Both the position numbers and the translations under genes were made by a program. A stretch of DNA of 64,000 nucleotides, taken from an uncultured Candidatus Poseidoniales archaeon (lineage in GTDB: Archaea > Thermoplasmatota > Poseidoniia > Poseidoniales > Poseidoniaceae). The stretch lies in the NCBI GenBank assembly GCA_964613395.1, contig CAZTGO010000005.1, positions 336 through 64,335 on the forward strand, given 5' to 3'. A model generated the notes under the pieces. That model ran no database searches. It had not been told where the DNA came from and saw only the letters and a program-made list of their open reading frames with translations. Shown piece after piece: positions 13,960 to 64,000 of the stretch (position 1 is its first letter; each line of letters opens with the position of its first letter).

Positions 13960-13965
13960 TTGAGC

Positions 13966-14637: not shown

Positions 14638-15086
14638 GGCTTGTACGAACCATCAGGATTTTTCACATATGGTGTCGATTCGTAGCCACCGCCTTCTTTT
14701 TCTTTGTAGTAGTACCCATCGGTGTGATGCAAATACTTCGCTTCTGGCTGGGGTTCCGGAGTTGGTGCAGGCGTTGGTTCGGGCACAGACTCGACTCCTG
14801 ACGTTGATTCAGGTTCAGCAGGGGTTACTTTTTCCGGTTCAGCTGGTTTTTCCATCGTGTTGACAACGCCCTCGTAATTGTCGCTCTGGTTCTCCGATGC
14901 GACGACATCTGTGTTACCTCCCCCGAAAAGTGCAAGTGCGTCTTTGTAGGCTTGGTCATCAACACGCTGCTGTGAATCTCGTGCGAACGGGTCCTCACCT
15001 TTGCTATACACGACCTTTTGAGGTTGTTCGTCGGGTAATCTATCAACGGTTTCTTTGGATTTCTTAAACGGCCAAATTGGTGCCAT
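14628..15086 (-). CDS. Hypothetical acidic, Pro-rich, probably disordered protein with an aromatic C-terminal peptide
   Basis: A 152-aa ORF exactly fills the gap between the SRAP gene and the divergent 15176 gene. No TM helix or signal peptide. It ends ...PEPTPAPTPEPQPEAKYLHHTDGYYYKEKEGGGYESTPYVKNPDGSYKPYQ. Low-complexity composition makes the coding call less certain. Confidence 0.5.
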   Translation of the reverse strand: MAPIWPFKKSKETVDRLPDEQPQKVVYSKGEDPFARDSQQRVDDQAYKDALALFGGGNTDVVASENQSDNYEGVVNTMEKPAEPEKVTPAEPESTSGVESVPEPTPAPTPEPQPEAKYLHHTDGYYYKEKEGGGYESTPYVKNPDGSYKPYQ

Positions 15087-15175
15087 ACCGCCTTGGAGAA
15101 ATTAGGCCTACATCAATGCTCCCACAAGGCTCAACGATGGGTGGGCTTCAAATTCTTTCGTGACCTGGGAATTAC

Positions 15176-20586: not shown

Positions 20587-22602
20587 TCATGCAACTAATT
20601 TGATTGTCTTTTGACAACCATCACAGGCAAATCGATGCGGTCGTTCATCAGTTGTGACGGCGTTGAGGGTTTGACATGCTGGGCAGGGTATCTTCGGATA
20701 GGCTGCGGCTGCTTGGATGAGCGATGCGTCTCTAGGGCTGAATATTGCAGTAATCCACCAAATCAAAACAATGAAAGCAACACTCACACCAATAAACAGC
20801 GGAGGATATGCAAAGATGTACACCAAAAGGGCAATCGGCATCAATGCCAATTCCATCATGAGAACACGCTTTTTCCGATAGGCAGAAATTTTCAATGCAA
20901 TGTAGAATGCACCGATGAACGAAACTAAAAGAGCAAGACCGAGGATAAAGGGTGAATACCCAATTGATGATGTTGGGATTGACGACAATGTGAAACTTTC
21001 GTCTTGTTCTATACCCTGACCTTTCAAGATAATCGTGTCATAGAACGGCGTACGAATTGTCTGTAATTCAAAGGCATCCGATTCAGATAGCTTTGTGCTT
21101 GTTAAACCAGTCATCATCGATGTTGTGATTTCAAGTTGTAGGTCAAATGTACTCCATATTTTTGCAGGTTGAACCACGACAAAGTCTCGGATGAAATCAA
21201 ATCGCTCTTGATCTTCGATGTGTTCAACGGTTGTGAAAATTAGCGTGATTGGATGAGGTTTTACCGCTGTTTCTCCATGGAGATCGACCGTTACATCAAT
21301 CGCATCGAAGTCATTGAAATCGCCGACGATTTCTTTCGAATCTAATCCCAAACCTTGTGTGATGTACAATGTTCCTAATTTGACAAGTTGGCGTTCGAAT
21401 TCTCCAATCTCTACAGGTTCGATAAATCTACTCACGCGGTCCTCTTCTGTGACACTACCTGCATTAAACGCCCGAAGTGCTGAGGAATGTGCTGGATTAT
21501 CGTCGCCGATATGATCAAGGCCCCAACGCATCCAAAATGCCATTTCATCTTGAATTGTGAGAACTGTTGATTTTTCCATGACAATGCCGTTGGAGTCCGA
21601 AGAAATATCTGCTTGAATATCAACAGTTAATCGACTTCCTACACCGTTTGTTCGCAGGGGCTCATCTGGAGGGTAATATGTACCCGTCCCACCACCTGTG
21701 TCGGTGGTGGTCACCTCAACCGATGTTGAGCCTTGCATGGCAGGACGTCCTTGTTGAAAGACCAGACGAACTTCGATATTAATGACCTCTGAACCACCCT
21801 TGGCATCGGTCCAAGTCCATGTGACTCGGATGAGGTCGCCACTTCCGGTTTCAATGGGGTCACCTGTGACCAAAACACCGTTGACATACAAATCAAGCGA
21901 TTCAGTTAGGGCAAGCGTCGACATGCCCCATGGTGATTCCAATGAAATAGGGATATAGACATCTTTACCCTCGATTTCAGGCTCAATGAGACGAATGTCG
22001 ACAAGCGGAATCGTCACTTCTAGTGACGAATCGAATTCTTCTGTACCCCATCGAAACTCTAGGGCGGAATCGCTTGTTGGAACTTGGAAGACGATTGCCT
22101 GTGCGGCAAGTTCAATCTCAATCGTGTTTGAAGCTGAAATGATAAAAGAATCGACTGGAATGTCAAAGGTGAGTACACCTTCACCTTGTGACAAGAACGA
22201 GTTGCCTGGCGAGGTCACGCCGCTGAAACTTTTCGAACCGATTCTAACAGTGGCAGTTGCATTAATTTGAGCACCTGCAGCCTCCGACAAATCATAGTGA
22301 ATGGAAAATGACCATGTTGAGTCGGGTACTGTCCCAGCCCAAACTGAACTTAATTCCCAAATACCTATGGACTCTTGAGATGCGATTGTCGAAGAGATTG
22401 GGATTGATTGCACGTCATCCCCTAACTCTTGGAGAAACGGTGTCATTTTTTTGTTGCTTTGGCTCCCTATAAGGTACAAATCGACTTCAGATGCATCACA
22501 ACAAATGAGAACATCTTCTCCACTTTGTGCAGCAACATTGTTTGGCAGGGGAACCAAGACAAGGAGGAATAATGCGAAGATAAAGAGAGCACTTTTCTTC
22601 AT
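20587..22602 (-). CDS. Secreted/membrane protein: large ectodomain, three C-terminal TM helices and a terminal cytoplasmic zinc ribbon
   Basis: Signal peptide MKKSALFIFALFLLVLVPLPNNVAAQ; ATG 22602, whereas the track start 22611 is TTG. TM segments are ILGLALLVSFIGAFYIAL, LALMPIALLVYIFAY and IGVSVAFIVLIWWITAIF. The protein ends ...IPCPACQTLNAVTTDERPHRFACDGCQKTIKLVA. Confidence 0.7.
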   Translation of the reverse strand: MKKSALFIFALFLLVLVPLPNNVAAQSGEDVLICCDASEVDLYLIGSQSNKKMTPFLQELGDDVQSIPISSTIASQESIGIWELSSVWAGTVPDSTWSFSIHYDLSEAAGAQINATATVRIGSKSFSGVTSPGNSFLSQGEGVLTFDIPVDSFIISASNTIEIELAAQAIVFQVPTSDSALEFRWGTEEFDSSLEVTIPLVDIRLIEPEIEGKDVYIPISLESPWGMSTLALTESLDLYVNGVLVTGDPIETGSGDLIRVTWTWTDAKGGSEVINIEVRLVFQQGRPAMQGSTSVEVTTTDTGGGTGTYYPPDEPLRTNGVGSRLTVDIQADISSDSNGIVMEKSTVLTIQDEMAFWMRWGLDHIGDDNPAHSSALRAFNAGSVTEEDRVSRFIEPVEIGEFERQLVKLGTLYITQGLGLDSKEIVGDFNDFDAIDVTVDLHGETAVKPHPITLIFTTVEHIEDQERFDFIRDFVVVQPAKIWSTFDLQLEITTSMMTGLTSTKLSESDAFELQTIRTPFYDTIILKGQGIEQDESFTLSSIPTSSIGYSPFILGLALLVSFIGAFYIALKISAYRKKRVLMMELALMPIALLVYIFAYPPLFIGVSVAFIVLIWWITAIFSPRDASLIQAAAAYPKIPCPACQTLNAVTTDERPHRFACDGCQKTIKLVA

Positions 22603-22669
22603 AATTCCCAAACCACCGATGAAACACTATCACTTAAGGGAAACTGTGCATTGTTTGAGTAAAATGCGA

Positions 22670-26407: not shown

Positions 26408-28615
26408 ATGCAAGGGAGAAAGAGGTGGTTTCTCCTTTCTGCGATTATTCTCCTTAGTCTAGTCACTGGCATACAAAACACTGCTGCTCAAACGGTTGAC
26501 AATGTCGAAGGAAATATGATGTTTGAAATCCAAGGGCTCGAACAAACAACATACCAATTCTCGCTTGAGGTCATTGAAGGTTTGACAAACATTGTCGATG
26601 TATCTTGCACTTCATGTACCGTGAGTATACTGCTCAACGACGAGGTTACAAATGGACAGCAACAAATCTTCGAAAGCGATGAAAATACAAGTGCGTTACT
26701 CACCATCGAATCTCATGAACGACAATTGATTCAAGTGAAGATTTTTCTTGACGTAAGTCACCACGGCCTAACCACTCGCCCATCGCCGACCCAAACAGTT
26801 GACATGCAAAATCTACCGCTCTGCGACATTCAATCTGTATGTTTCCAGCATGAGCCACAGTCGTTGAGAAATACTCAATTTTTCAATCAACAAGAAGTTG
26901 AAATTTACGCAGGAAAAATAGCGGATGGACTGGATGATTACCTCGTTTTTCCAGCAGCAAAAGGTGCCACGGTTGAGTTGAACTGGCATCATTTAACTGG
27001 TGACCAAACGACAACAGTATATTTTCAGGAAGATGAAAATGAACTCCAGTTACTCCCACCAACACTTGTTCAGCCCAATCAAATGCTGAAACCTCTTGGC
27101 ATCCTTCACAACACCATGTATCTTCAGATTCCCGATGATGGCAGAATTATTGTTAAAATCCAAGGTGAAAATCCCACGGATTATTATGCTCTTTCGTTGG
27201 TTGCTTACCGAAAAATGACAAACATCACAACTGCATTCGATGTCGAGGAATCGACGAACTATATAGGCCATGGAATTCATCAACTTGCGTTCGATTGGCC
27301 AGAGGCCCATGCAATACATTTCGTTAATGGCCCCCATCAAATTGAATTGAACATCACGTTTTTTGCAGGTGTTGAATTACGAGATGATGGACAAGTGATT
27401 TTACCATACGAACAAGTAAAAATTTACCCTTACCCAAACACAACTGCTGGAAAATTCATTATCATCTCAAATCAAACGTACTCCTTCGATATCGAATTGA
27501 GAAACTATTCTGATGCGTCGAGCGATCGGGATGCACAAGGATACCTACCATCCGGAAACCTCAGTCAAATTTCACAAGATTGGGTTCTCCTTAATGTCAC
27601 AGAGAATTACAATGCTCAACTGACCTTATCAATTTTCGATACAAGTGATACATATCTGTTCTACATCGAGGGGTGGGAAGAATCAATCCATTTCGTTGAA
27701 TTTAAGATCGAAGGGACAATCGATGGGCTTCAAGTCCAACTTTGGGACATGAATCCAAACACACATGAACCAATAAATTCCTACATCGGTTTGAAGTCAT
27801 CAACTGAAATTCGAGTTGGGCAGCAAGTCGGCCAAGGCCACCATATTCTCCAAATTCGACATCAAGACCCCCTCAATGTAACACCAACCGAATTTGGCAT
27901 CGATACGCCCCCTATTCAATACACGATAACCTCAACATACCAACTCATCGATGAAGGTGAAGAACCTTGGTTTCCGCCAGATGATGAAGCAAAAGCCTGG
28001 GGAGAAATTGTTCGTTGGATTCTAGGATTTCTGCTGATTGTTCCTGCAATTTTCTTGTTTATAGCAAAGAAAAGAAATGATCGTTTGACTGCAGAAATTC
28101 TTTCCAAAAGAAATCGTCTTGATTGGTTAAAATCTCAACTTGATTCAGGTAATGTCACGTCGAACGGATCGAGAAAAAATCTTCTTCGAAGTTTAACAGC
28201 CCTACAATCTGTTGCATGGAACGAAGGTACAAGTTCGTGGGGTCCGCCGTCGCTACAACATACAACAGAAGGCCTCGAATTTATGGTTTGGGAACTCGAC
28301 AAGAGATTGTCAACAGATGAAAAAGCCACACCATATCTCATAGGCGTGTACGCAAAAGAAGGCTCTTGGGACCTTGCAGTGTTGAAAATCGAGGCTCCTG
28401 AAGGCTCGCCATTTAACATTGTAAATTGCGCACCAAAATTCCTTTTCCGTGGTGAAGAAGTGTTCATCGACACACTTCTGCATGGCCAATTAACCTACTT
28501 CCAAATTGATGTACTCGGTTCATCGAAGCGTGTTGAATTTGAATTGAATGGAAGATTGGATGGACAGCCATTTGCCGCAAAAATCCCTCACTCACTCTTG
28601 TTTGAGGAAGAATAA
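26408..28615 (+). CDS. Large surface protein with a single TM helix and a 182-aa cytoplasmic C-terminal domain of unknown type
   Basis: Signal peptide WFLLSAIILLSLVTGIQNTAAQ. The ectodomain is beta-rich with many N-x-S/T sequons. TM helix IVRWILGFLLIVPAIFLFIA. The tail (nt 28067..28612) looks non-low-complexity. Confidence 0.75.
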   Translation: MQGRKRWFLLSAIILLSLVTGIQNTAAQTVDNVEGNMMFEIQGLEQTTYQFSLEVIEGLTNIVDVSCTSCTVSILLNDEVTNGQQQIFESDENTSALLTIESHERQLIQVKIFLDVSHHGLTTRPSPTQTVDMQNLPLCDIQSVCFQHEPQSLRNTQFFNQQEVEIYAGKIADGLDDYLVFPAAKGATVELNWHHLTGDQTTTVYFQEDENELQLLPPTLVQPNQMLKPLGILHNTMYLQIPDDGRIIVKIQGENPTDYYALSLVAYRKMTNITTAFDVEESTNYIGHGIHQLAFDWPEAHAIHFVNGPHQIELNITFFAGVELRDDGQVILPYEQVKIYPYPNTTAGKFIIISNQTYSFDIELRNYSDASSDRDAQGYLPSGNLSQISQDWVLLNVTENYNAQLTLSIFDTSDTYLFYIEGWEESIHFVEFKIEGTIDGLQVQLWDMNPNTHEPINSYIGLKSSTEIRVGQQVGQGHHILQIRHQDPLNVTPTEFGIDTPPIQYTITSTYQLIDEGEEPWFPPDDEAKAWGEIVRWILGFLLIVPAIFLFIAKKRNDRLTAEILSKRNRLDWLKSQLDSGNVTSNGSRKNLLRSLTALQSVAWNEGTSSWGPPSLQHTTEGLEFMVWELDKRLSTDEKATPYLIGVYAKEGSWDLAVLKIEAPEGSPFNIVNCAPKFLFRGEEVFIDTLLHGQLTYFQIDVLGSSKRVEFELNGRLDGQPFAAKIPHSLLFEEE

Positions 28616-46271: not shown

Positions 46272-46451
46272 AGTCTCACCTGCGACATGGTGCTAACTGC
46301 CGCTGTCTAAAACTCCACGCGTTTACCTTATGAGGGTGATGGAACATTGTTCCGACAGAACATCATTAAAATCATCATCGACATTTCCAAAAACTTGCGA
46401 AATAGCACAATTTGGAGGGTCAATAGCGGTGTATTCAAAGTCCGTACGCGA

Positions 46452-47294
46452 ATGGCTACGAATATTGGCATGACGTTGAGTATCACCCACCTTGGAACTG
46501 GAAGCAGTGGCAACTCCACATTGCTTGCAACCGAAGATACAAAATTGCTCATCGATCAAGGATTTAGTGGCAGAAAACTTACTCAACGACTTGCCCAAAT
46601 TGGATTGGAACCAACTGATATTGACGCTATTCTCATCACTCATCACCATGGTGACCACGGAGGTGGTGCGAAATTATGTCAAACACGTTGGGGCATTCAA
46701 ATCTATGCGAATGAACGGACAGCATTGGAATTGGACCTTTTACCCCACCACACCACCTATTTTGAAAATCTAGAGTTGCTGGAATTTGGTTCAGGCATCC
46801 GAATTCTACCAGTACCGGTCCCACATGACGGGGCAGATAATGTTGCATTCATTGTTAGTTTCCAACAAGAACGTGCTGCAATCATAACTGATTTGGGCTC
46901 ATGGACTGATGAATTGGTACAGCATGTCCAGGGATGCGAACACATCGCAGTTGAAGCGAATTACGATTCAAAGCGACTTCTGGGCGGCCCATATCATAGG
47001 AAATTGAAAGACCGAATAACAGGTCGAGGCGGGCACTTATCAAATGAGCAAACGGGTTCGTTCTTAGCGCAGGTTTGCACTGAATCAACTCGAAGTATCA
47101 CACTCCTTCACCTAAGCAGTGAAAACAATCGGCCGCATTTGGCAGAATCAACAGTTCTCTACCACATCGACGAAATTTTTTCCGGAGATTTAAGAATATC
47201 AACCCAAGATGGACCGGAATTTTCGACATACATTGGTCAGCAATCTGAAGAAGGGCAACAAAGCAAAATCCATCGATTCAAGGTGAATGCATAA
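46452..47294 (+). CDS. Metallo-beta-lactamase-fold hydrolase (YycJ/PhnP-like)
   Basis: LSITHLGTGSSGNSTLL, the metal motif ILITHHHGDHGGG, VPHDGADNVAF and GRGGHLSNEQ. The start is ATG 46452 or ATG 46470; the track start 46347 is TTG and lies in the divergent promoter gap. Confidence 0.8.
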   Translation: MATNIGMTLSITHLGTGSSGNSTLLATEDTKLLIDQGFSGRKLTQRLAQIGLEPTDIDAILITHHHGDHGGGAKLCQTRWGIQIYANERTALELDLLPHHTTYFENLELLEFGSGIRILPVPVPHDGADNVAFIVSFQQERAAIITDLGSWTDELVQHVQGCEHIAVEANYDSKRLLGGPYHRKLKDRITGRGGHLSNEQTGSFLAQVCTESTRSITLLHLSSENNRPHLAESTVLYHIDEIFSGDLRISTQDGPEFSTYIGQQSEEGQQSKIHRFKVNA

Positions 47295-47318
47295 ATCCAA
47301 CGAAGGACTGGCGTGAGT

Positions 47319-48380
47319 ATGGAAGCCAAGAGAGGTGAAACATTCTCGGCTTCTTCATCCAGGGATGAGCGTGGTGTTAGCGAAGTTCTGGGCGTTGTGA
47401 TGCTTTTAGCAATGGTCATCACCATCATGGGAGGGGTTTGGATTTTCCTCAACCCATACATGAGTGATTTTGAAGACAACACAAATTGGAAATCTGCCAC
47501 TGGTATTACAGAACGAATTGATGATCGAATCAGCGTTGCTGGAAATTCACCAAATGGAACTGGTTTCAAAAACTCGATGTCGCTGGTTTCCACATCCATA
47601 CAAACTATGAAGGGTATAGAATATTGGACTGTGGCTGCTGATTTGACCACTCGAGATGTCATCAAAATCAAACACATGAATGATTCGGCAATTGAAGTGA
47701 CATCGATAAATGAGCGAATTGTAACCATTGAAATTCAAAATCATCTCGAAACCTTAGCCCTCGATGTCGATGACGGTGAAAGCCGATATATTATCAGCCA
47801 CAATCTTTCTCGTCAGAAATGGTTCATGGTCACAGCGTATGATGCAGAGGGCACATCACTCCATAGGCATGTTGATGTCATTCTCTCGGGATTAAAAGTC
47901 ACAACCAGTCTCGGGATGGGTGACCACCAGATCGCTCTCATCAACAACGCCGTCATCGAGAAATTTCCAAATGACCCCTGGACCATTGCTTCTATGCCCA
48001 CCTTGTCGTTCACTCACCTCGCTAATGGTGATGTGAGGTTAGCTATCCTTCTCACTGATGCTCATTCTATTCGTTCATTCGGCGGTGCCGGTAAAACGAG
48101 CATCGAATTTCTCTCTCTCGGACCAATGAACTTATTTTCAGGACCTGCATACAACATCCACTTCTCTGCACACAGTGAACTACATCCAGTCGTTAGTCCA
48201 CAGTATCATGAAACTTGGTTGCAAGACTATTATCTCCATCGCTCATCTGCAACATTGACGACATATGATGGTATAGCTCCCTTTGAACGAGCGAGTGGTG
48301 CTGATGGTTTCACTGTCATGACCACAAGCCCTGTTGTGCATTTCGAAGTTGACCTTCAACGAGTCGAGGTGAACACATGA
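47319..48380 (+). CDS. Pilin-like surface protein with an archaeal class III (type IV pilin) signal peptide, 353 aa
   Basis: The N-terminus ...SSSRDERGVSEVLGVVMLLAMVITIMGGVWIFL (nt 47370..47450) matches the archaeal type IV pilin N-terminal pattern D-x-R-G-V-S-x-V-i-G followed by a hydrophobic helix. ATG 47319; the stop overlaps the next start (ATGA). Confidence 0.7.
   Translation: MEAKRGETFSASSSRDERGVSEVLGVVMLLAMVITIMGGVWIFLNPYMSDFEDNTNWKSATGITERIDDRISVAGNSPNGTGFKNSMSLVSTSIQTMKGIEYWTVAADLTTRDVIKIKHMNDSAIEVTSINERIVTIEIQNHLETLALDVDDGESRYIISHNLSRQKWFMVTAYDAEGTSLHRHVDVILSGLKVTTSLGMGDHQIALINNAVIEKFPNDPWTIASMPTLSFTHLANGDVRLAILLTDAHSIRSFGGAGKTSIEFLSLGPMNLFSGPAYNIHFSAHSELHPVVSPQYHETWLQDYYLHRSSATLTTYDGIAPFERASGADGFTVMTTSPVVHFEVDLQRVEVNT
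48366..48371 (+). promoter_or_regulatory. Shine-Dalgarno-like GAGGTG inside the 3' end of gene 1, upstream of ATG 48377
   Basis: The sequence reads tcGAGGTGaacacATGa with a 5-nt spacer. The start and stop overlap in ATGA, implying translational coupling. Confidence 0.5.
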
Positions 48381-50626
48381 AGACATCCAGCACACTTTGC
48401 AGGGACGAAGATTCTGTTTCAGCAGCTGTAGCAACCGTTCTCCTTTTTGGTGGCGTTCTTTCGATCATCGGCATGATGATGGTATCGATGGTCCCAGTCA
48501 TTGAGGAACTTGAAGGATCTGTCGAACGGCACGACATGTCGGCACAAATGGCACTTCTTGCTCACAAAACCTCATTGCTCAGCGAGACTGGAATGCCAGG
48601 GGATTCCACATCAGCAGAATTGATCCCCGTCGATGGCAATCTCGTTTGGGACCGACTTCGTGGTGGCATGTGGTACTCAGCTACTTGGGGAGAGGACATG
48701 AGTTTACGTGCAAAAAATGTTGTTGACTTTGATGACGAATTCGAAATTCGTCACCCAGAAACCGAAACTGCAGTGGTGTGCACAACGGATTTACGGCTTG
48801 GCATCAATCGCCCTTATTACTATGACATACCCGATTACACAGAGAAACTTCTCATCACAGCAAAACCGGGCCTCGCCTTACCCCTAGGCCCCATTGATAT
48901 CTCGATGTTCGGCGATGATGGTTACGAATATTCCAGTGAACTCCTTGTTGACGAGGTGTTCTCATCTAGTTTCATTTTTCCAGTCGGTAACCTCACAATA
49001 AAATCCACGCATGAACTCAACATATTGGCTCTTGCTGGCGACGAAGGTGCAACCTATATTCCTCCAAATCAGCCCGATGCTGCAAATAAACTCGGGCGTT
49101 CTTGGTCAATCCCGCTACCATCTGGACTCTCGACCGTCTATGTGACGAGCAAAGATGCAAATGAAGTCTCTTTGATTTTAGGTGATGAATCTGCAACATA
49201 CTTCGGAATTCCCGATGAAATTGCAAGAACAGGAACAGGAGTAGAATTACAGTTCAATCAATCGTCTGAAGCGGTTGCTCATATTTTTACCAGTTCAAAT
49301 TCTCAAATTATTTACAGGTATGGTGAATCATCTGGTGAAGGCCTCACATATATTCCCTCAACGACCGGCTCTTACTACGGACAAGAGTTCATCCCTCCCT
49401 ACACAAATAGTACTCTTCGATTATCGAACCCAGGTGAAACAGCATTGACCGTAACTTGGCGTGGAGGAGGAATTACGGTGGCTGCAAATGATGTTGAAGA
49501 TGTTTCATGGCCACCATCAACAACATACACAACCCCACTTGTTCTTGAATCGGACTCGCCATTCTCTGTGCTGTGGTCATCATTTGATCAAAATCAACCC
49601 GTCGACCTTCGAGATGGCATGGTTCATCTCATTGCAAAGGACACTGGATTTTGGACTGGCCATCACTTCAATTACACTTCAAGTCAAGACATAGGCCAAG
49701 AAATCGAAGCATCACTCCGTGGCTATCGCACTGAGATTCTTTGGGAGCAAGGAGGATTGAATGGAACGAATATTTTCATTCAAGACGGTACAACTTCGAA
49801 ATTGTATTCCTTGGCTTCAGAATCATTGAATATTGAAGTGAACAACACACACCCAATCTCGCTCCTACGAGCGGCAGGTGATAGCGGAGCACTCTACATA
49901 CCGCATTCAGGCACCGAGCGTTGTGAATCGGTGGGTACATTAGCGAGTGGCTGGATACCATTGCAACTTGCTTGGCAATCCATGGGTGGCCGCAGCGATT
50001 CAGATGTAGAAAATGCATGGATCGATGGGCGACATCCCTCAAGCGTTCAAATCGATGTGTTTGGTACGATTGATCAAGATTTCAACGCAAACATAGGAAC
50101 CATTTGGGCCTTCCATCTCTCACGCCTATCGTATCAATTCAAAACCTCCGTTGAAGGCATGGAGGTAGCTTACTCTGGAGGTGCAGTCATGACCAATCAC
50201 CCAGAGTTCAATCCATATATCGTGGTTCCACCTTCTGACCGAGGAGGCCCAGGGCCACGATTTGCAGCAACTATTCCCGCATTACATCCATCTTCTGATA
50301 GTGTCATTGGAGGAGGTAAACTTTCGATTGATATTGAGCTAAATTTGCGAACATCTCTCGCATCGACAGATGCCTATGAAATTAGGAGGGGTTGGAACGA
50401 ACCATACGGAGCAGCAATCGCCGAACATGCTGGTGAGGGGCTCGGAGGAAGTGAAGACTGGACAGTGTACCCTGGAAGGCTCGACCTCCTCACCGACTAT
50501 GTTGGTTGGGTCCCAGATCCAAGTTTCGGAACGAGTGAAACCGTATGGCACACCAATGGAGAGGTCATCAAATTCAGCCTTCAACTCAGCGCTCTTGAAG
50601 TCACACTAAGGGAGGCTAACCGATGA
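48377..50626 (+). CDS. Large (749 aa) pilin-like surface protein with class III-type N-terminus
   Basis: N-terminus MKTSSTLCRDEDSVSAAVATVLLFGGVLSIIGMMMVSMVPVI (nt 48401..48502). The rest is beta-rich and hydrophilic with many N-x-S/T sequons. Both junctions are ATGA overlaps. Confidence 0.65.
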   Translation: MKTSSTLCRDEDSVSAAVATVLLFGGVLSIIGMMMVSMVPVIEELEGSVERHDMSAQMALLAHKTSLLSETGMPGDSTSAELIPVDGNLVWDRLRGGMWYSATWGEDMSLRAKNVVDFDDEFEIRHPETETAVVCTTDLRLGINRPYYYDIPDYTEKLLITAKPGLALPLGPIDISMFGDDGYEYSSELLVDEVFSSSFIFPVGNLTIKSTHELNILALAGDEGATYIPPNQPDAANKLGRSWSIPLPSGLSTVYVTSKDANEVSLILGDESATYFGIPDEIARTGTGVELQFNQSSEAVAHIFTSSNSQIIYRYGESSGEGLTYIPSTTGSYYGQEFIPPYTNSTLRLSNPGETALTVTWRGGGITVAANDVEDVSWPPSTTYTTPLVLESDSPFSVLWSSFDQNQPVDLRDGMVHLIAKDTGFWTGHHFNYTSSQDIGQEIEASLRGYRTEILWEQGGLNGTNIFIQDGTTSKLYSLASESLNIEVNNTHPISLLRAAGDSGALYIPHSGTERCESVGTLASGWIPLQLAWQSMGGRSDSDVENAWIDGRHPSSVQIDVFGTIDQDFNANIGTIWAFHLSRLSYQFKTSVEGMEVAYSGGAVMTNHPEFNPYIVVPPSDRGGPGPRFAATIPALHPSSDSVIGGGKLSIDIELNLRTSLASTDAYEIRRGWNEPYGAAIAEHAGEGLGGSEDWTVYPGRLDLLTDYVGWVPDPSFGTSETVWHTNGEVIKFSLQLSALEVTLREANR
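50611..50615 (+). promoter_or_regulatory. Shine-Dalgarno GGAGG upstream of ATG 50623
   Basis: The sequence reads aagGGAGGctaaccgATGa with a 7-nt spacer and an ATGA start/stop overlap with the preceding gene. Confidence 0.5.
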
Positions 50627-51099
50627 CCTTAGATTCAAAATTCACACGTGATGAATCAGGTGCTGCTACTGAACTCGGGTATATCTTCACATTTCTTCTC
50701 GGTGTGCTCCTCATGACAATGTTCAGCATTTGGGCATGGGGAATCGAAACATCCACTCGAGAGCGTTGGAATGATGAAGCAATTATTGCCAACATGGACG
50801 ATATCGTTGAAGCTGTTGAGCGTGCAAATGAAGCAAGTCGAATTGATAATTCAACATATGCCGAATGGGTCTCATGGAGACCAACGGAAGCTGACGAATC
50901 ATTGATGACACTCAAGTTGGAAACAAATACGATTGAACTCGTTGATGAGTCAGAAAGGGAAGGATACACTGTTCAACATTCGGGAACCGGGAATGCAGAG
51001 AACAATGGTACACTCGCCCTGGCAGGTATCACAACAATTTGGGTTGTGCTTGAAGATGGTCAAATCTACCTTTCAGCGGACAGACCGTATTTTTCTTAG
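50623..51099 (+). CDS. Small (158 aa) pilin-like protein with class III-type N-terminus
   Basis: N-terminus MTLDSKFTRDESGAATELGYIFTFLLGVLLMTMFSIWAWGI (nt 50647..50745). Of the three genes, this size is closest to a structural pilin. Confidence 0.6.
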   Translation: MTLDSKFTRDESGAATELGYIFTFLLGVLLMTMFSIWAWGIETSTRERWNDEAIIANMDDIVEAVERANEASRIDNSTYAEWVSWRPTEADESLMTLKLETNTIELVDESEREGYTVQHSGTGNAENNGTLALAGITTIWVVLEDGQIYLSADRPYFS

Positions 51100-53615
51100 C
51101 GACCCATGACCGCTCTGTGAACGAGAGTTTGAACCTCTTTCATCTTGGAACTTGCTCCGAGTTCACGATATACTGCTAAAGCTCGTTGCAAATACTCCAT
51201 CCGTCGCTGACGGTCAGGTGTAACGCCTCCTAAACGCGTCAACAATTCACCAATTTGCATTCGTAAATCGTTGGCTTCTGCAACAACGAGTGCTTCTCTA
51301 TACTGCTCCATCGCCTCTTCTTTTCGCCCAGCATCCTGCAAAACTTCCCCAAGGAGAATGGTAATATCGACCAATGTGACAACATCACCAGTTGTGTGCA
51401 TCGTTTCTAGCGATGACGTATAATGATGAAGTGCCAGTTTAGAATCACCTATCTTAGCATAATATCGACCGAGAACAGACTGAGCTCGTGCATGTAATTT
51501 TTCATCTTCAATCTCTTGTGTGCGTTCATAACAATTCAATGCATGATCTCTTGCGCGTTCAATTTCTTCGAGGTCAATCAAAGCACGAGTCAAGGTAAGA
51601 CGATGTGACAGAAGTGATTCATCATCTGAATCAGAAACAATTTTTTCGACTTCAGCGTATGCTTCAAGTGCTGTGTTTCGGTCATTTTTTCTTCGATATA
51701 AATATCCGAGATTATTGTATGTTCGAGCAGCTAGCCTGTTGTTCTTCAATTTGATATAATGTTCCAATGCTTCAGTGTGGCGTTCCATAGCGAGGTCCAA
51801 ATCGCCTTGTTTTCTTGCAACATCTGCTAGGGAAGACAGGATATTCGCTTGAGACTCGATGCTCTTCGAATCACACAAAGAAATTGCATAATCAAACGCA
51901 GCCTCCGCTTCATCGAGGCGGCCGAGGAGTGAAAACAAGTCTCCTTGGAGTTGCAGAATTTGAATTCGAGATGCAACATCAATACTGTCAAATTCAATTT
52001 TGTTGATATGAGTATGAAGTTCCATATACCCTTGAGATATGAGATCTTTTCCATGATCGATTATATATTGAGATGCATCTTCATGTTGGTTGGAATTAAT
52101 GGCATGATAAATTGTTTCAATGACGTTATGCAATTCATTCGATTGTGATCTGTACCATTCGAGACACTTGAGATGATACTCAGTTTTGAGTGGAGTAGGC
52201 ATACTTTGAAGGAGAAATTCACGGATAAGATCGTGAACATCGTACAATTCCTTGTCAACTCTTCGAGCCAGACCAGAATCAACCAATGAATCGAGTTCAT
52301 CCGTATCAAGGCCTTGTTGGGCTAGTTGACTTAGTGTTGCAGGGTTTCGATAAATTGCAATCGCTGAAAGAACTCTTTTTTGCTCTGCACTGAGTTTCGA
52401 AAAAATTTCAACAGTGACATAATTTTCTAACGTTTCATGGAATGTTCCAGGTGATGCACCACGATTGATAAGTTCTAGAACGAGTGGATGACCTCGTGAT
52501 AAGCCGTGAATGTACAACCATTGTTCATCTTCCATACCGTCATAACTACTCAACAATTTACGTCCAGCATCCGAGTCAAGACCTTCGAGAGGCAGGAACA
52601 AACTTGCAATACGCCCTTCAGCATCCTTCGCTGGCACAACTGGTTTAAACGAGCGTGAGAACAATACAAGTCCTATCTTTTCTTCGGATTCGAGCAGTGC
52701 AAGCGTGATTGCTTGCAACGTTTGATGAAGCAACATATCGGAAACCTTGTGCAAATCGTCGATGACGATGAGTGATTGTGCTCCTTCGATGCCATCAATA
52801 ATCATTCGAGCAGCATCTGCCGGTGATGGATGTGGATTTGCCATGAGGAAATCTGCAAAAGACGAATCGCCAATCGAGGAGAGCCAATCGGCGACCGATT
52901 CAAAAAATGGTCTCGAACCCTCCCATTCTTGGCATCTATGATACAACAAATTTCTTCTGTGCATGAAACGTTCAATTAATTTTGCAGCTACTGAGGTTTT
53001 GCCGATACCTGCAATACCAGGCACAAGAAGAGTCGTTGCACGTGCGTCGAGTAGACTTTCCATATTATCCAATTCTCGATTCCGACCAAAGAAATGTCGA
53101 ACTCGTGGAAGGTCTGTTAGTGAAGTGACAAGTTGTTTTTCGACATGTTTTGAAAGGTCACGTTCAATCAAATCTGCTGAAAGTGTACGTGTGTCTAGAA
53201 TCCCATTATCATCCAAATATCGGATGACATCGACTGGTCGCATTTCAAATGGAAGGGAGGATTTTATTGTACCTAACGTTGTAGATACTGACGTCCCGTC
53301 ATTCAATATGCAGCGAAGAGGATAGGTTTGCAATCTCGTCCAGGTCTCTCCTGCTAATTTAATTCCAATGTCAGTGAGAAAATACGCTTTACGCTTTCTT
53401 GAAACACCCTTGACGTGAGCTTGTCGTTCAATGAGGAGGCCGTCGTCTTTCAAACCTGCAATTGCCCGCGGGACGTTCGACCTAGCGATAGCAACAGCAT
53501 TTGCAATTCCCATCTGGGATAAAGCAAAGGGTACTTCGATACTCGATTTGAAATCCGCATAGTCAAACAAATGAAGCAAAATCCTCTCTTGAACGCTAGG
53601 CTTTGCAATACTCAT
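51096..53615 (-). CDS. STAND-class P-loop NTPase with N-terminal winged-HTH and C-terminal TPR array (MalT/AfsR-like signal-transducing regulator)
   Basis: wHTH-like segment FALSQMGIANAVAIARSNVPRAIAGLKDDGLLIERQ. FFGRNRELDNMESLL precedes Walker A LLVPGIAGIGKTSVAAK; Walker B is SLIVIDDLHKV; the GxP motif is LSRGHPLVLELI. A C-terminal region of about 330 aa has repeated TPR-like A/L/Y helices (ARTYNNLGYLYRRKNDRNTALEAY, AQSVLGRYYAKIGDSKLALHHY). Confidence 0.8.
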   Translation of the reverse strand: MSIAKPSVQERILLHLFDYADFKSSIEVPFALSQMGIANAVAIARSNVPRAIAGLKDDGLLIERQAHVKGVSRKRKAYFLTDIGIKLAGETWTRLQTYPLRCILNDGTSVSTTLGTIKSSLPFEMRPVDVIRYLDDNGILDTRTLSADLIERDLSKHVEKQLVTSLTDLPRVRHFFGRNRELDNMESLLDARATTLLVPGIAGIGKTSVAAKLIERFMHRRNLLYHRCQEWEGSRPFFESVADWLSSIGDSSFADFLMANPHPSPADAARMIIDGIEGAQSLIVIDDLHKVSDMLLHQTLQAITLALLESEEKIGLVLFSRSFKPVVPAKDAEGRIASLFLPLEGLDSDAGRKLLSSYDGMEDEQWLYIHGLSRGHPLVLELINRGASPGTFHETLENYVTVEIFSKLSAEQKRVLSAIAIYRNPATLSQLAQQGLDTDELDSLVDSGLARRVDKELYDVHDLIREFLLQSMPTPLKTEYHLKCLEWYRSQSNELHNVIETIYHAINSNQHEDASQYIIDHGKDLISQGYMELHTHINKIEFDSIDVASRIQILQLQGDLFSLLGRLDEAEAAFDYAISLCDSKSIESQANILSSLADVARKQGDLDLAMERHTEALEHYIKLKNNRLAARTYNNLGYLYRRKNDRNTALEAYAEVEKIVSDSDDESLLSHRLTLTRALIDLEEIERARDHALNCYERTQEIEDEKLHARAQSVLGRYYAKIGDSKLALHHYTSSLETMHTTGDVVTLVDITILLGEVLQDAGRKEEAMEQYREALVVAEANDLRMQIGELLTRLGGVTPDRQRRMEYLQRALAVYRELGASSKMKEVQTLVHRAVMGR

Positions 53616-59425: not shown

Positions 59426-62400
59426 TCAGAATCGAGAACTTGAACGTCCACTTCGCACTGCCTTGAATCCAGCATAGATGACAAGACACATGAGTAAGAA
59501 GATGACAAGAGTGACCCAAATCGAATTACCTTCTCCAGTACTACCGGCATAGAAATCGACTGAGAAATCAAAGTCTTCAACTTCAACATCGACATACTCT
59601 GCGTCATCTCCGATCACATCAACACGCACATCGTAGCGGTGGTTGCCTGCCGATGTTGCATTCAGTGTGAAGTCAGCGAACACAATTTCCTGAGCAGGTA
59701 CTGAAATCGTTGTTTGTAGTTCCTCATTTTCATCTGTCGTAAGATAAACAATCACACTGCTCGCATCAAGCATTCCATAGTTTTCGACTGGGATACTTAG
59801 AACAGTTTCGACATCTGCATCTGCAGATTTTGAAATCAAACTTTGGTCAACCTTTAGTTTGATTCGTGCTGCTTGAACTGTAACATCAACTGTTTTCGTA
59901 CTGACGCTATCGCCTTCGCTTGAAACAATGACAGAGAGTTCTTTTGTTCCCTCAGTGAAATTATCACCTGCAAGGATTGTAAAGGACATTTGTCGTGAAT
60001 CATCTTTTGAAATGGTCACACTTGTAAGCATTGGAGTAACGGACCAACCTTCAGGAATATTATCTACAACTTCGAGCGTAAATGTATCATCACCATTACC
60101 CAAATTTTCGATTGTGAATGACATTTGTCGTGAAATCGAAGGTGATAAGCCCACCACCTCAGTTTCATCAACGATTTCGAACTCATGGACTTGAGGAACA
60201 AATACATTCAGCGATATTTCACTGGTCTCAGCAAGTTGAGTTCTCATGTTGAGAAGTATTCGATGTCCTTCGTCGAGATGCCATGTTGTGTTTTGTGGCG
60301 GAAGGGTGATCCTCACAGACACATTTGTGGATTGTGTTACACTTGTGTCACTTGCGTTTTCACCTATACCAAGCTGAACTTGGAGTTCATCAACATATTC
60401 AGTTCCGTTGAAGAATTCAACAATCCAATCAGTCGAATCAGGTGCGGCAACAACTGAACCCGTGAGGGTAAAGAGGTCGTTCACTTCAGTACCATTGTAA
60501 TCAAGGTCGATATCAAATGTAATTTGTTCGTATTCAGTTCCAGATGGAATGGCATCCATTCGTTGTGAATCATTGACATCATAGCCTGCACCTTCAACGG
60601 ATGCATTCACAATTGTCATTGTTGTGTCTGAATTGATTCGACGGTTGTACTCAAGGGTAAGCGGTTGGGAACCGCTTGTTGGCACCGTTCCTGCTGCACC
60701 ACCGTTGTACTCCATTTCAAGTTCAAAATCATGTTGAATGGTGATAAACTCAGAATCCATGGAGACTGAACCCGCTGGTGCGAGGAAGAAGATGGTTCCA
60801 TTTGCGGGAGTTGTTTGAATAAATTCAATTCCGTCGCCGAAACTAAATTCAATTTCAACTTCCTCTGCAATAAGGCTGTAACCAGCGTCATCGCTTCCTA
60901 CGTGGTGGGCTACACCTTGGATATCAGTCCAAGATGTACTGAGGATAAGATATCCACCATTTCTCATTTCAAGGTCGACTGACCCTCCGTTCGAAACTGA
61001 TGCATCGAGCAAACCAATAGCGACACCCCCACCGTTTTCGTCGAGGTTTTGCGAAGTGACATACACGACCCATTCCCCTGGTTGTACTTCGGCTTCCCAT
61101 TCAAGGACTGTTCCGTTCATTGAACCAACGACTTCAATTGGGTCTCGATCGTATGCTGAAGTGGGGTAGAGCAGAATTGTAGCATCAACATTATCGGCAC
61201 CAACCAAATCAACAACGGTACCGCTAACTTGAACGGTGATTGCCTCAACTTCAATATCGTGAGATTCTGAGGCATTTTCAACAACATAGCCAATGCTTTC
61301 GTTGGTTGTTTCGTAGTACACCGTTCCGTATCCATCTTTTGCCACTGTGACATTGTAGGTGTCTTGTATTGGAACAAAGAGACGCCATACTCCGAATTCG
61401 TCTGTTTCAATGGTTTGGTTGACGGTTAATTCGTCGGAACTCAAAACCGAAACTTCCATTCCCTCGATGCCTTTTTGCGTGTCGGAACTTATCTGCCAGT
61501 ATACTTTTCCTCCAATCTGAACTTCCAAGTCAGCTTCCAGAGTCCCGAGGTCGAGATTAAACTCACCATCATGGTCATCTGTGTTAAATGGGTCATTGGA
61601 AGTGTTTAGCATCCAGTGTTTTGTCGATGTTGAATAATTCAATTCAAGACTCCATTGTCCAGGCATGAGGAGTTCAGTCGTGTAACCTGTTTCATTGGTC
61701 TTTTCAAATGTGATTTGACCATAGCCATCTTGACTGATTGCCTTAACTCGCTGTTCTGAGAGATTGTTCTGTGTCAATCCCTCTTGTAGTTGAAAACTCA
61801 CATTTACACCTTGAACAGTCTGTAAGTCCAGAGATGTCCGTAATTCAGCGTCTTCGCTAACACTCACAGGGCTTCTTAGAACTTCGGTAATATCACCTGA
61901 TGAATATGGAGCAACAATAAACAGCCAATCACCTGATGGAACATATTCTGCAAATGTACCATTTTCGTCTGATGCAATGTTGAAGTAATCGTCTTCGTCT
62001 TCATTATACATCAAGAAACTGTTCTGAATTCCATCTCCTGTAGAGTTGGTAAGCGTTCCGTTTACTCTGTAAGTTTCCTTAAACACAAGGTCGATCGCAT
62101 CTTCAGGACCGCTCAATCCAATATCTATAAGGTCGAAGAATGAAAAAGCAACTAGGTCATAATCCGTTGCATTTTCATCTCCAGCAGAAGTTCTGTTGAG
62201 GACAACTTGATAGCTTCCAGGAGTTAACGTAACCACAAGTTCACCAACATCATTGTAATCGTCTTCGGTAATGTTGACTTGAGTTCCAACACCCATTGGT
62301 TGAAGGTTAAAACTTGGTGAAATCTTCGTTCCATTGGTTGAATCAATATCGGCATTTGATGCCATGTACACATTAAGTGTAACTTCGATTTCATCTGGGT

Positions 62401-64000
62401 ATACATAGAATTCAAGGAATGAATTCTGCAGTGTTGTCGAGGTATTCACAATAACGCCTTCGATTGTGGTAGCATTGAGTAATTCATTTTCAAATTCGAA
62501 GTCATAGACGCCGTCAGGGAGCTGAGTGAAAAATCGCCCCTCGCTTGAGACAGTTGTGTTCCATGTTAGTCCATCTTCATTGGTTGCAAATAGATTCTCA
62601 GATTCCCAACCTGGAATAGTTGAATCCCAAAATGTGCCGTTATCGTAAAGATAAAGGAAGCCCTCAATGGTCGAAGTTGGTTCAAGGTAGATTGTTCCAA
62701 GGTCTATATCTTCAACTCCACTGACCTCAAGCAATTCACCATATGCCATCGCTCTGGTCAGTGAGAATATCGTGAAGTTGTAATCATGGCCACTAGGGAC
62801 TCGAATTGAGAAATTTCCTGAATCCGATGACGTCGTTGTGCTAAATTCAAGGTCACCTGAAACCATAGTGATAGGCGTATCTTTCACTGTTTCAGTATTG
62901 ATTAAGAGGAGATCAGGGTTATCTTCTGTTTCTGAATACCATTGGTGATAGTCATTGAGAGCACCGTTGTATGAACGAACAGACCCATTGAGGACTACAG
63001 ATGTTGAATATACGAATTCTTCATTGAGTTCATCATTTGGTTCCACACTAATTTTCTCGTACAGAACCATCGATTCATCGAGATTATCGATAATCGTGTA
63101 CTCTCCTGCAAGCAATTCCACGAAGATAATACCATCTTCGTCTGATGTTGCTTCAATAGGTTCAGCAAATCCGAGACCATCGTCGAAAGTGATCGTCCTG
63201 TTGGCTACATCGATGAGTGGTTCATTAGTGTCCACATCGAGTGGGGAAACCAATTGAATCGTTATGTCACCTGTTGGTGGTACATTGAACCCAAGTGTGA
63301 GGTTCTGCGACTCATCTGTAACGAAGAGTGTTTGATTCATATCGTACCAACCGTCACCATCTGCGTCAACCCTGTAATAATATTCACCAAAGGTGATTGG
63401 ACCGTGAGCAAACGAACCATTTTCATCCGTGACTATTTCAATCATCGAATCTTCTCCAAGAACAACATCAATGAATTCTATTGTCGTGTTTGCAAGAGGA
63501 TTGTTGTCGATATCAATGAGTGTATCACTAAAGTGTGATGCTGGAATTGACATATCAAGGTCGTAGCTAGGTGTAATTCCAACAACGACTGGGTCAGGAA
63601 GGAGTACTTCCTTTCCATTTTCCATCTGTGCAATCATATTGTACGTACCTGGAAGCAAGCCAGTTTTGTAGAATGACCCAGGTTCGACCATTGGTCCGGA
63701 GAATGTCCCGTTTCCAATAAATAGACCTGTTCCGTTGAAAATTCCAGTTCCATAGAAACTTCCTATGCCCTCAAAACTAACTCCGTCATCAAATTCCTGA
63801 ACGAATGTTGTGACACCATCAGAAGTGAGCATACCCTTTCCAACAAATTCTCCGTCGAAGAGATACTCTTGACTACCTTCACCTAGTTGGCAGATGGTTT
63901 GGTTGGCCGGCATGGCAAATTCAGTTGAATTCTCTACTGGCTCACATTGGCTCATATTTGTCGTGTTTTCAAGCCATGTTGCCTTGAAAGTACCTTGTCC
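59426..64000 (-). CDS. Giant (over 1520 aa) surface protein with CarboxypepD_reg-like and CARDB-like beta-sandwich repeats and a C-terminal TM anchor; N-terminus lies beyond the window end
   Basis: Hand check shows the frame is still open from 63955 to 64000 (GQGTFKATWLENTTN-MSQCEP...), so the gene is 5'-truncated by the window. Repeats follow the pattern G-x-V/L-x-D/N-x(n)-T-D-E-N-G-x-F, for example IEFIDVVLGEDSMIEIVTDENGSFAHGPITFGEYYYRV and FLMYNEDEDDYFNIASDENGTFAEYVPSGDWLFIV. CARDB-like motifs are FTIENLGNGDDTF and IPVENYGMLDASS. TM helix IWVTLVIFLLMCLVIYAGF with a short basic tail RSGRSSSRF. Confidence 0.85.
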   Translation of the reverse strand, partial: GQGTFKATWLENTTNMSQCEPVENSTEFAMPANQTICQLGEGSQEYLFDGEFVGKGMLTSDGVTTFVQEFDDGVSFEGIGSFYGTGIFNGTGLFIGNGTFSGPMVEPGSFYKTGLLPGTYNMIAQMENGKEVLLPDPVVVGITPSYDLDMSIPASHFSDTLIDIDNNPLANTTIEFIDVVLGEDSMIEIVTDENGSFAHGPITFGEYYYRVDADGDGWYDMNQTLFVTDESQNLTLGFNVPPTGDITIQLVSPLDVDTNEPLIDVANRTITFDDGLGFAEPIEATSDEDGIIFVELLAGEYTIIDNLDESMVLYEKISVEPNDELNEEFVYSTSVVLNGSVRSYNGALNDYHQWYSETEDNPDLLLINTETVKDTPITMVSGDLEFSTTTSSDSGNFSIRVPSGHDYNFTIFSLTRAMAYGELLEVSGVEDIDLGTIYLEPTSTIEGFLYLYDNGTFWDSTIPGWESENLFATNEDGLTWNTTVSSEGRFFTQLPDGVYDFEFENELLNATTIEGVIVNTSTTLQNSFLEFYVYPDEIEVTLNVYMASNADIDSTNGTKISPSFNLQPMGVGTQVNITEDDYNDVGELVVTLTPGSYQVVLNRTSAGDENATDYDLVAFSFFDLIDIGLSGPEDAIDLVFKETYRVNGTLTNSTGDGIQNSFLMYNEDEDDYFNIASDENGTFAEYVPSGDWLFIVAPYSSGDITEVLRSPVSVSEDAELRTSLDLQTVQGVNVSFQLQEGLTQNNLSEQRVKAISQDGYGQITFEKTNETGYTTELLMPGQWSLELNYSTSTKHWMLNTSNDPFNTDDHDGEFNLDLGTLEADLEVQIGGKVYWQISSDTQKGIEGMEVSVLSSDELTVNQTIETDEFGVWRLFVPIQDTYNVTVAKDGYGTVYYETTNESIGYVVENASESHDIEVEAITVQVSGTVVDLVGADNVDATILLYPTSAYDRDPIEVVGSMNGTVLEWEAEVQPGEWVVYVTSQNLDENGGGVAIGLLDASVSNGGSVDLEMRNGGYLILSTSWTDIQGVAHHVGSDDAGYSLIAEEVEIEFSFGDGIEFIQTTPANGTIFFLAPAGSVSMDSEFITIQHDFELEMEYNGGAAGTVPTSGSQPLTLEYNRRINSDTTMTIVNASVEGAGYDVNDSQRMDAIPSGTEYEQITFDIDLDYNGTEVNDLFTLTGSVVAAPDSTDWIVEFFNGTEYVDELQVQLGIGENASDTSVTQSTNVSVRITLPPQNTTWHLDEGHRILLNMRTQLAETSEISLNVFVPQVHEFEIVDETEVVGLSPSISRQMSFTIENLGNGDDTFTLEVVDNIPEGWSVTPMLTSVTISKDDSRQMSFTILAGDNFTEGTKELSVIVSSEGDSVSTKTVDVTVQAARIKLKVDQSLISKSADADVETVLSIPVENYGMLDASSVIVYLTTDENEELQTTISVPAQEIVFADFTLNATSAGNHRYDVRVDVIGDDAEYVDVEVEDFDFSVDFYAGSTGEGNSIWVTLVIFLLMCLVIYAGFKAVRSGRSSSRF

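Follow-up and report, generated by a model that had tools for sequence, protein, structure and literature searches.

The window analysed here, a stretch of 64,000 nt from contig CAZTGO010000005.1 (assembly GCA_964613395.1) of a Poseidoniaceae (Marine Group II a, MGIIa) archaeon, carries three adjacent + strand genes, hereafter P1, P2 and P3, whose products begin like archaeal type IV pilins. The three genes are translationally coupled. Judging from the homologues retrieved, the trio is specific to the order Poseidoniales, occurs order-wide and is never split, since homologues are confined to Poseidoniales and the arrangement is the same in all loci inspected. On the reading we favour, which is about as likely as not, P1-P3 are a Poseidoniales-specific type IV pilin-like set (Pilin_N, class III signal peptide) forming the minor-pilin or tip complex of a filament built in trans.

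Gene organisation and translational coupling

The + strand operon consists of three open reading frames (ORFs), all present in the ORF list of the window: P1 (47319-48380, 353 amino acids (aa) from its ATG), P2 (48377-50626, 749 aa) and P3 (50623-51099, 158 aa). P1 has orthologues in all related loci and an alternative start, a GTG at 47313 that lies six bases before the ATG (ORF 47313/47319-48380). The P2 ATG lies within the ATGA overlapping the P1 stop (48377-48380), and the P3 ATG within the ATGA overlapping the P2 stop (50623-50626). Sequence inspection places a Shine-Dalgarno (SD)-like GAGGTG (48366-48371) 5 nt before the P2 ATG and a GGAGG (50611-50615) 7 nt before that of P3, both on the + strand and both complementary to the 3' end of a Poseidoniales 16S rRNA (...GGATCACCTCCT, from the supplement of Tully 2019). 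These overlaps and motifs had been proposed in a first-pass annotation made by a model from the bare sequence; the ORFs were found again and the SD-like motifs are where it had put them. The layout is also kept in relatives: across related loci every P1/P2 junction (74 of 74) and most P2/P3 junctions (65 of 76) have a 4-nt NTGA stop/start overlap, and a core SD sequence of 5 nt or more lies before P2 in 64 of 82 unique relatives and before most P3 starts.

An antisense ORF (47237-47728, - strand, 163 aa) runs across both the 5' end of P1 and the 3' end of the MBL-fold gene upstream of it; it is without homology support and likely spurious.

Distribution and synteny

Scanning a single genome for each GTDB species turned up relatives in 212 genomes; the best 80 loci are all from Poseidoniaceae. 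In all 80 of these species loci the trio sits within the same gene block, which runs from two giant secreted proteins (-) through the MBL-fold gene (+), P1-P2-P3 (+) and the STAND gene (-) to a β-helix/Big_7 protein, an S8 protease and an STT3/AglB protein (all -). The same arrangement recurs in more divergent Poseidoniales lineages as well, at least eight in number and one of them named Thalassarchaeaceae, in every case for which the context was fetched. Pairwise identity between the divergent P2 clusters is 28-46%, and the three genes are always together at P2 identities down to ~30%. The synteny and co-occurrence conditions that the first-pass annotation had set for its own refutation do not hold: the three genes are syntenic in relatives, P1-P3 always occur together, and the STAND gene adjoins P3 in all loci.

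A P2 profile search of 1.84 billion cluster representatives returned 135 hits, all of them members of the P2 family, either fragments or full-length. About 12 full-length 50%-identity clusters make up the family (weakest E 1e-141) and the remaining hits are fragments; P2 homologues all come from Poseidoniales (Marine Group II). Neither a distant relative of P2 nor a homologue of its C-terminal domain was found among the 1.84 billion cluster representatives. A viral or mobile origin of the trio was rejected because its synteny is fixed order-wide.

One of the loci (L023, NZEQ01000036.1) is labelled 'Verrucomicrobiales bacterium isolate ARS100'. It holds a complete Poseidoniales block with a P2 53% identical to that of the window; a binning error or a wrong label on the metagenome-assembled genome (MAG) is the probable explanation.

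Leaders, putative cleavage sites and N-terminal helices

All three proteins have one long N-terminal hydrophobic segment (residues 18-48 in P1, 12-45 in P2 and 13-42 in P3), and their N-terminal sequences read as the first-pass annotation had quoted them. In P1 (within 47319-48380, + strand) pattern and profile alignment place the leader at aa 1-19, with putative cleavage after Gly19 (RDERG|VSEVLGV); the hydrophobic helix that follows (aa 20-48, VSEVLGVVMLLAMVITIMGGVWIFLNPYM; 47376-47462, + strand) is the best-conserved part of the P1 alignment (0.81). The P2 leader (aa 1-13, within 48377-50626, + strand) carries the putative cleavage site RDEDS|VSAAVATV and precedes a conserved hydrophobic helix (aa 14-45; 48416-48511, + strand) that is indicated by hydrophobicity, by a low-confidence AlphaFold2 (AF2) helix spanning residues 11-48 and by hhalign to the P1 N-terminus. 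The P3 leader (aa 1-13, within 50623-51099, + strand), with the putative site RDESG|AATELGY, leads into a mature N-terminal α-helix (aa 14-71; 50662-50835, + strand) whose first half is hydrophobic and whose second half is amphipathic.

Orthologue alignments sharpen this picture. A motif common to the P1-P3 orthologues, [L]-x-R-D-[ET]-x-[AG], is followed by an invariant mature N-terminus; Arg, Asp and Glu dominate positions -5 to -2, with -5 to -3 mostly R-D-E/T. The leaders differ in length and sequence yet stay basic, and invariance starts sharply at +1, with VSEVLG in P1, VSAAVA in P2 and AATELG in P3. Among unique orthologue N-termini, Ala or Gly occupies -1 in 47 of 47 for P1, 55 of 58 for P2 and 66 of 66 for P3; when Ser is counted with them, as found in three sequences, P2 reaches 58 of 58. 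The small residue at -1 on which the idea of cleavable rather than uncleaved N-termini had been made to depend is thus kept in the orthologues, as Gly or Ala. When all six frames of the window were scanned with a strict FlaFind-like pattern, P1 was the sole match.

At P2 codon 13 (48413-48415), Ser occupies the predicted -1 position in the window's subclade (L006, L008, L009, P0002), other lineages having Ala or Gly. On these alignments the Ser is a peculiarity of that subclade; it also occurs in three MGIIa loci (L077, L080, L084).

Homology to archaeal pilins

P1 matches the Pfam families DUF7289 (PF23960, 7.8e-5) and Pilin_N (PF07790, 0.0085) and NCBIfam TIGR02537 (0.0058), and all three matches begin at residue 18, that is, at the -2 position. 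Its scores remain under the curated cut-offs (Pilin_N 17.4 vs 25.2 bits, TIGR02537 16.1 vs 20). P2 matches DUF7289 (0.003), and in the hidden Markov model (HMM) search of the window proteins P2 and P3 gave no Pilin_N or TIGR02537 match. The DUF7289 scores of P1 (22.8 bits) and P2 (17.5 bits) fall below the cut-off of 27, the matches being partial, over only positions 1-44 and 3-71 of the 238 in the model. The family assignments recur among orthologues: 15 of 16 P1 orthologues match DUF7289 and 14 of 16 match Pilin_N (best E 4e-4), a precomputed DUF7289 match is present on some MGIIa P2 orthologues, and three of 16 P3 orthologues match DUF7266 (best 2.1e-5).

Searched against the 177,635 sequences of the PDB, the P1 profile returned haloarchaeal type IV pilins (8gi2, 8fj5 and 9myg) as its top three relevant hits. 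The segment 'arDERAVSEVLGVvmlLAmV' of P1 is aligned exactly over leader and helix with the pilin sequences DEERAVSPVIGVILMVAITV / SDEERAVSPVIGVILMVAITV; the E-value of this alignment to solved pilins is only 0.043, though it is convincing by eye. Profile-profile alignment of the N-termini (hhalign) joins P1 to P2 (E 1.4e-4) and P2 to P3 (E 6.9e-4). Because the P1 leader and helix align with solved haloarchaeal pilins, the RDEx[GS] motif that the first-pass annotation took to be distinctive is better seen as the ordinary, canonical euryarchaeal Pilin_N leader (Natrinema PilA2 has D-E-E-R-A|V-S-P-V-I-G). Its assignment of class III signal peptides and type IV pilin-like N-termini holds up, by the Pilin_N and DUF7289 matches, the alignment to the three haloarchaeal pilins, the P1-P2 and P2-P3 profiles and the predicted structure of P3. 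Going by these sequence matches, a class III, pilin-type N-terminus is well supported for P1; the case is good for P2 and fair for P3.

Pfam, NCBIfam, PDB sequence and PADLOC searches with P1-P3 yielded weak N-terminal matches only and no function. P1-P3 had no Pfam or NCBIfam match to archaellin (PF01917) or the ArlF/ArlG β-sandwich, and no such fold was among the PDB hits. A tblastn search of P1 against plasmid sequences, aimed at haloarchaeal DUF7289 loci, gave noise only, and a literature search on the DUF7289, DUF7266 and DUF7287 numbers or on Poseidoniales pilins found nothing.

Predicted structures and cellular location

The AF2 model of P3 (mean predicted local distance difference test, pLDDT, 83) consists of a 62-residue helix (10-71) followed by seven β-strands, and as modelled its layout is the general pilin 'lollipop'. 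P2 is modelled less well (mean pLDDT 55.6): its N-terminal helix (11-48) has low pLDDT, the middle of the protein (~aa 120-530) is all-β and made of β-sandwich domains with pLDDT 60-90, and the C-terminal 175 residues are without a usable model. An orphan C-terminal domain (aa 576-725) is conserved as strongly as the helix. P1-P3 are acidic and have 0.8-1.3 N-glycosylation sequons per 100 aa, like the neighbouring secreted proteins and unlike cytoplasmic ones; acidity and sequon density support a probable extracellular location.

P2 residues ~378-507 (49508-49897) show weak matches (E 1e-6 to 1e-4) to repeat units in three long multi-repeat proteins of the representative library, P0235 (6 stretches), P0245 (26) and P0247 (12), and are probably a common Ig-like or β-sandwich repeat.

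Assembly machinery

Among ORFs of at least 150 aa in the 64 kb window there is no Pfam match to T2SSE/FlaI, T2SSF/FlaJ/TadC, peptidase A24 or archaellin, and the window encodes no polytopic membrane protein of FlaJ/TadC type; the lack of assembly genes claimed in the first-pass annotation is therefore real. Its suggestion that the machinery is encoded elsewhere is reasonable for the window's family, because Tully 2019 lists flaI, flaJ and flaK in MAGs of this kind. At least 12 trio-bearing MAGs have flaI and/or flaJ (UBA255, UBA256, SAT1329, IN1219, RS440, UBA433, UBA88, UBA91, TMED99, UBA229, NAT37 and MG2-GG3; Tully 2019). Where accessions are given these genes lie on other contigs, the archaellum operon and the trio being separate in SAT1329, NAT37 and TMED99 (Tully 2019). 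For the peptidase gene flaK the reported frequency is 90% among MGIIa MAGs vs 16% among those of Marine Group II b (MGIIb; Tully 2019 supplement). Of the divergent trio-bearing clusters, P0129 alone could be linked by neighbouring accession numbers to MGIIa.1 genomes, a group that does have archaella. The archaellum operon is present in all Poseidoniaceae genera, and a role in adhesion has been proposed for it (Rinke 2018).

A putative minor-pilin complex and the alternatives to it

The minor-pilin or tip-complex model would work as follows. P1-P3 would be made in roughly equal amounts through translational coupling and inserted into the membrane by their N-terminal helices. The FlaK/PibD-type prepilin peptidase of the genome would cleave them after the -1 Ala/Gly, and the conserved helices would join them into a heterotrimeric minor-pilin-like complex. 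An ATPase and platform protein encoded elsewhere would then load this complex onto a filament, most likely as a tip or initiation complex; the candidate machinery in Poseidoniaceae is the archaellum-type FlaI/FlaJ, the only kind reported. The large β-rich domains of P2 and P1 would then be exposed, ready to bind particles or cells. Complex formation is favoured by the conserved NTGA overlaps and SD motifs and by the constant co-occurrence of the three genes, and cleavage by the Ala/Gly signature at -1.

The Poseidoniales (Marine Group II) are described in Rinke 2018 as the most abundant planktonic archaea of ocean surface waters, and none has been cultured. Genome surveys propose particle attachment via an archaellum-type filament, with no adhesin named (Rinke 2018). 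As the adhesive or initiating part of such a filament the trio is a concrete candidate, and its three proteins are well-defined targets for metaproteomics, for heterologous cleavage assays and for structure prediction.

Several results weigh against this model. All HMM matches are under curated cut-offs and cover only the N-terminal 30-70 residues; HMM and profile scores are this low because only ~30 residues are common. The direct P1-P3 N-terminal profile alignment is not significant (E 0.065). The window's own P2 and P3 miss the FlaFind-like pattern, failing its strict form because of a Ser at -1 in P2 and at -2 in P3. The FlaFind-style prediction that the first-pass annotation had called for accordingly suits P1 and fails for the other two window proteins, though many orthologues pass, the strict pattern being satisfied by most P2 orthologues and by slightly under half of P3 orthologues. 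Foldseek comparison of the P3 model with the PDB found no pilin, minor pilin or pseudopilin among the top hits (best E 0.12), and that of P2 found only generic β-sandwich or jelly-roll hits at template modelling (TM) scores of at most 0.13, again with no pilin. ATPase, platform protein and peptidase are absent both from the window and from ±10 kb around the trio in ~90 loci. P1 is pilin-like rather than archaellin-like, yet the only machinery reported for the order is of archaellum type. Moreover, flaK and flaH are reported in only 16-29% of MGIIb MAGs (Tully 2019), and the trio is present in many divergent lineages including Thalassarchaeaceae; the trio may therefore exist without machinery. 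Finally, the tip location and adhesin role are suggested by analogy only.

Some of these points would fit a different arrangement, which we entertain tentatively. P1-P3 could be derived from pilins and independent of any filament, forming, cleaved or not, a membrane-anchored heterotrimer that anchors or organises a glycoprotein coat together with the conserved surface proteins encoded next to it (the giants with TSP3 repeats or a β-helix, the S8 protease and the STT3/AglB protein of ~3200 aa). The order of the ~30 kb block is kept across Poseidoniales, and a fixed partner is suggested by the C-terminal domain of P2, whose conservation equals that of the helix. However, all genes in the region keep their order, so that adjacency is weak evidence of linkage, and the neighbours are on the opposite strand. 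No machinery lies close to the trio, and the trio occurs in many divergent lineages whereas archaellum genes and flaK are reported as rare in MGIIb; but no trio-bearing genome is known to lack peptidase or ATPase. It is, besides, hard to see what use an uncleaved anchor would have for a canonical Pilin_N leader and a conserved Ala/Gly at -1.

In its strongest form, in which the trio is independent of type IV machinery, persists in Thalassarchaeaceae that have neither archaellum genes nor peptidase and scaffolds a coat of giant glycoproteins, we consider the idea unlikely. If the trio does persist without any pilus machinery, pilins would have been reused as envelope components; the archaea most abundant in the surface ocean would then have exapted them as a scaffold of the cell envelope.

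It is similarly improbable that a type IV machine builds from P1-P3 a short pseudopilus or bindosome-like stalk, periplasm-like or on the surface, that would present a binding domain for substrate capture or serve in the export or anchoring of large secreted proteins, in analogy to the Sulfolobus bindosome or to the pseudopilus of bacterial type II secretion. Class III signal peptide proteins with large C-terminal domains are widespread in archaea away from filament loci, and the trio does sit amid giant secreted hydrolase- or adhesin-like proteins. P1-P3, however, have no Pfam domain of a substrate-binding protein or enzyme, no ATP-binding cassette (ABC) transporter is encoded in the window, and no homologue outside the order lends a function.

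We give still less weight to P1-P3 being ordinary signal-anchored (type II) membrane proteins, their likeness to pilins having arisen by convergence from the positive-inside rule and a transmembrane helix. The HMM and structure matches are indeed all sub-threshold and the similarity spans ~30 residues, but the alignment to pilins is residue-specific, including D-E-R-A|V-S-x-V-x-G-V, and the top three relevant PDB hits of 177,635 are all archaeal pilins. The leader motif is, in addition, kept in three paralogous families across the order, and the modelled P3 helix of 62 residues would extend far beyond a membrane span.

An anti-virus defence module, with a STAND-TPR sensor, an MBL nuclease-like protein and three membrane effectors, is highly improbable and was rejected: apart from the STAND-TPR architecture itself, it would draw on weak, generic PADLOC hits to the MBL protein (RTasMBL 7e-6, LmuA, Avs1a) and the TPR region, whereas P1-P3 are PADLOC-negative, the STAND protein has no hit to a specific family, the PADLOC hits at the locus being only generic (TPR, AbiEi, MBL), the STAND gene is convergent with the trio rather than co-oriented, and the locus is a fixed order-wide core block and not a variable island.

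Comparison with known systems

The closest likeness is to haloarchaeal PilA pilins (Natrinema PilA2, 8gi2, 8fj5 and 9myg; Haloferax volcanii PilA1-6), which share leader and helix (D-E-(E/R)-R-A|V-S-x-V-(I/L)-G-V-(I/V)-(L/M)) and are likewise encoded apart from PilB/PilC (PMC4858521). They differ in being major subunits of ~145-165 aa, whereas P1 and P2 reach 353 and 749 aa with unrelated globular domains. P1 is moreover under the Pilin_N cut-off, and P1-P3 are not known to form a filament.

Size and the distance from machinery have precedents among euryarchaeal minor-pilin sets. Makarova et al. 2016 (PMC4858521) showed that euryarchaeal pilin sets often lie away from the genes of the ATPase/TadC module and follow their own evolutionary course. 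Among their members are β-rich minor pilins (arCOG02911) 250-550 aa long, and large PilY-like proteins go with some of the systems. A 2026 preprint describes pilins that stand alone, system 2 loci with large adhesin-like proteins, and class III signal peptide proteins of large size, numbering in the thousands, whose genes are remote from every filament locus (bioRxiv 10.64898/2026.04.22.720090). Given these precedents for both, the size of P1 and P2 and the absence of machinery neighbours, which the first-pass annotation had regarded as unusual, are not so (PMC4858521; bioRxiv 10.64898/2026.04.22.720090). Such sets (arCOG02911 in PilB3/PilB4-type loci; haloarchaeal DUF7289/DUF7266/DUF7287) resemble the trio in consisting of adjacent class III proteins of differing size, with β-rich members of 250-550 aa, and in being separable from ATPase and TadC; P1 and P2 match the DUF7289 N-terminus and some P3 orthologues match DUF7266. 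On the other hand, the C-terminal domains of the trio have no relatives outside Poseidoniales, and the DUF7289 matches of the window proteins are partial and sub-threshold. The novelty lies in a family set that is confined to one lineage, has orphan globular domains and is fixed throughout an order both uncultured and globally abundant. As it stands, a known archaeal theme, that of pilin sets in trans and large class III proteins, is extended to a new lineage; it is not a new kind of system.

The Epd pilus of Methanococcus maripaludis is comparable in having essential minor pilins (EpdA-C), large DUF2341 'PilY-like' proteins as putative tip adhesins and stand-alone pilin genes, but it is encoded mostly in an 11-gene locus with ATPase, platform protein and a dedicated peptidase, EppA (EpdA in the preprint). 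No sequence similarity was detected between Epd proteins and P1-P3. Epd pilins have a conserved Gln at +1.

In bacteria, GspI-GspJ-GspK of the type II secretion system (T2SS) and FimU-PilVWX with PilY1 of the type IVa pilus (T4aP) are pilin-like proteins of varied size, one of them much enlarged, that are encoded by adjacent and often overlapping genes. In these complexes, which cap the fibre or prime it, the subunits are held together by their N-terminal helices. They serve as a working analogy only for the trio, as peptidase, leader rules and domain of life differ and P1-P3 have no sequence or Foldseek similarity to them. Sulfolobales bindosome proteins are also large (500-700 aa), with pilin-type N-termini, and are encoded away from their assembly system (bioRxiv 10.64898/2026.04.22.720090); P1-P3 differ from them in having neither a substrate-binding-protein domain nor a neighbouring ABC transporter.

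Flanking genes and the surface-protein block

The genes on either side of the trio had been recognised in the first-pass annotation, and Pfam bears it out on both. Located 24 nt 5' of P1, an MBL-fold metallo-hydrolase (46452-47294, + strand; Pfam Lactamase_B 4e-17, with generic MBL matches only in NCBIfam) is present at this position in nearly all loci. The gap between the MBL stop and the P1 ATG is 24 nt in the window and 47-290 nt in other lineages; with so short a distance here, one transcript may carry both the MBL gene and the trio. The mechanical start of the MBL ORF, a TTG at 46347, is probably too early, as the ATG at 46452 gives 280 aa and homologues have 270-284 aa.

On the other side, a wHTH-AAA_16(STAND)-TPR protein identified by Pfam (51096-53615, - strand) is encoded convergently with P3, with a 4 bp overlap at the P3 3' end, and we infer that it is a candidate regulator. 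The STAND-TPR gene is split (421 + 418 aa) at 12713-15221 of locus L004 and intact (841 aa) at 12713-15238 of the near-identical L005, pointing to a frameshift or an assembly error.

Gene order is conserved across Poseidoniales over ~30 kb around the trio (35091-63955 of the window, and beyond its end). Within the window the block includes two giant secreted proteins, one of 1786 aa and one of 1913 aa that bears TSP3-like repeats, together with a β-helix/Big_7 protein of 1478 aa and an S8 protease; in relatives the β-helix/Big_7 protein has 1450-1500 aa, and a ~3200-aa protein with an STT3 (AglB oligosaccharyltransferase) domain is also part of it. The whole looks like a core cell-surface gene cluster of Poseidoniales.

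The ORF at 59426-64000 (-), listed with 1509 aa and without an upstream stop in the window, is the C-terminal part of this ~3200-aa STT3-domain giant, and its sequon density, 2.85 per 100 aa, is the highest in the window. Other large proteins, encoded at 4479-9452, 15176-17632, 20587-22611 and 26408-28615 on various strands, combine a Sec-type signal peptide with a C-terminal hydrophobic anchor. Among them are an S8 protease of 1657 aa that contains CARDB and three others lacking any Pfam match, and the recurring pattern suggests a shared mechanism of C-terminal anchoring or sorting.

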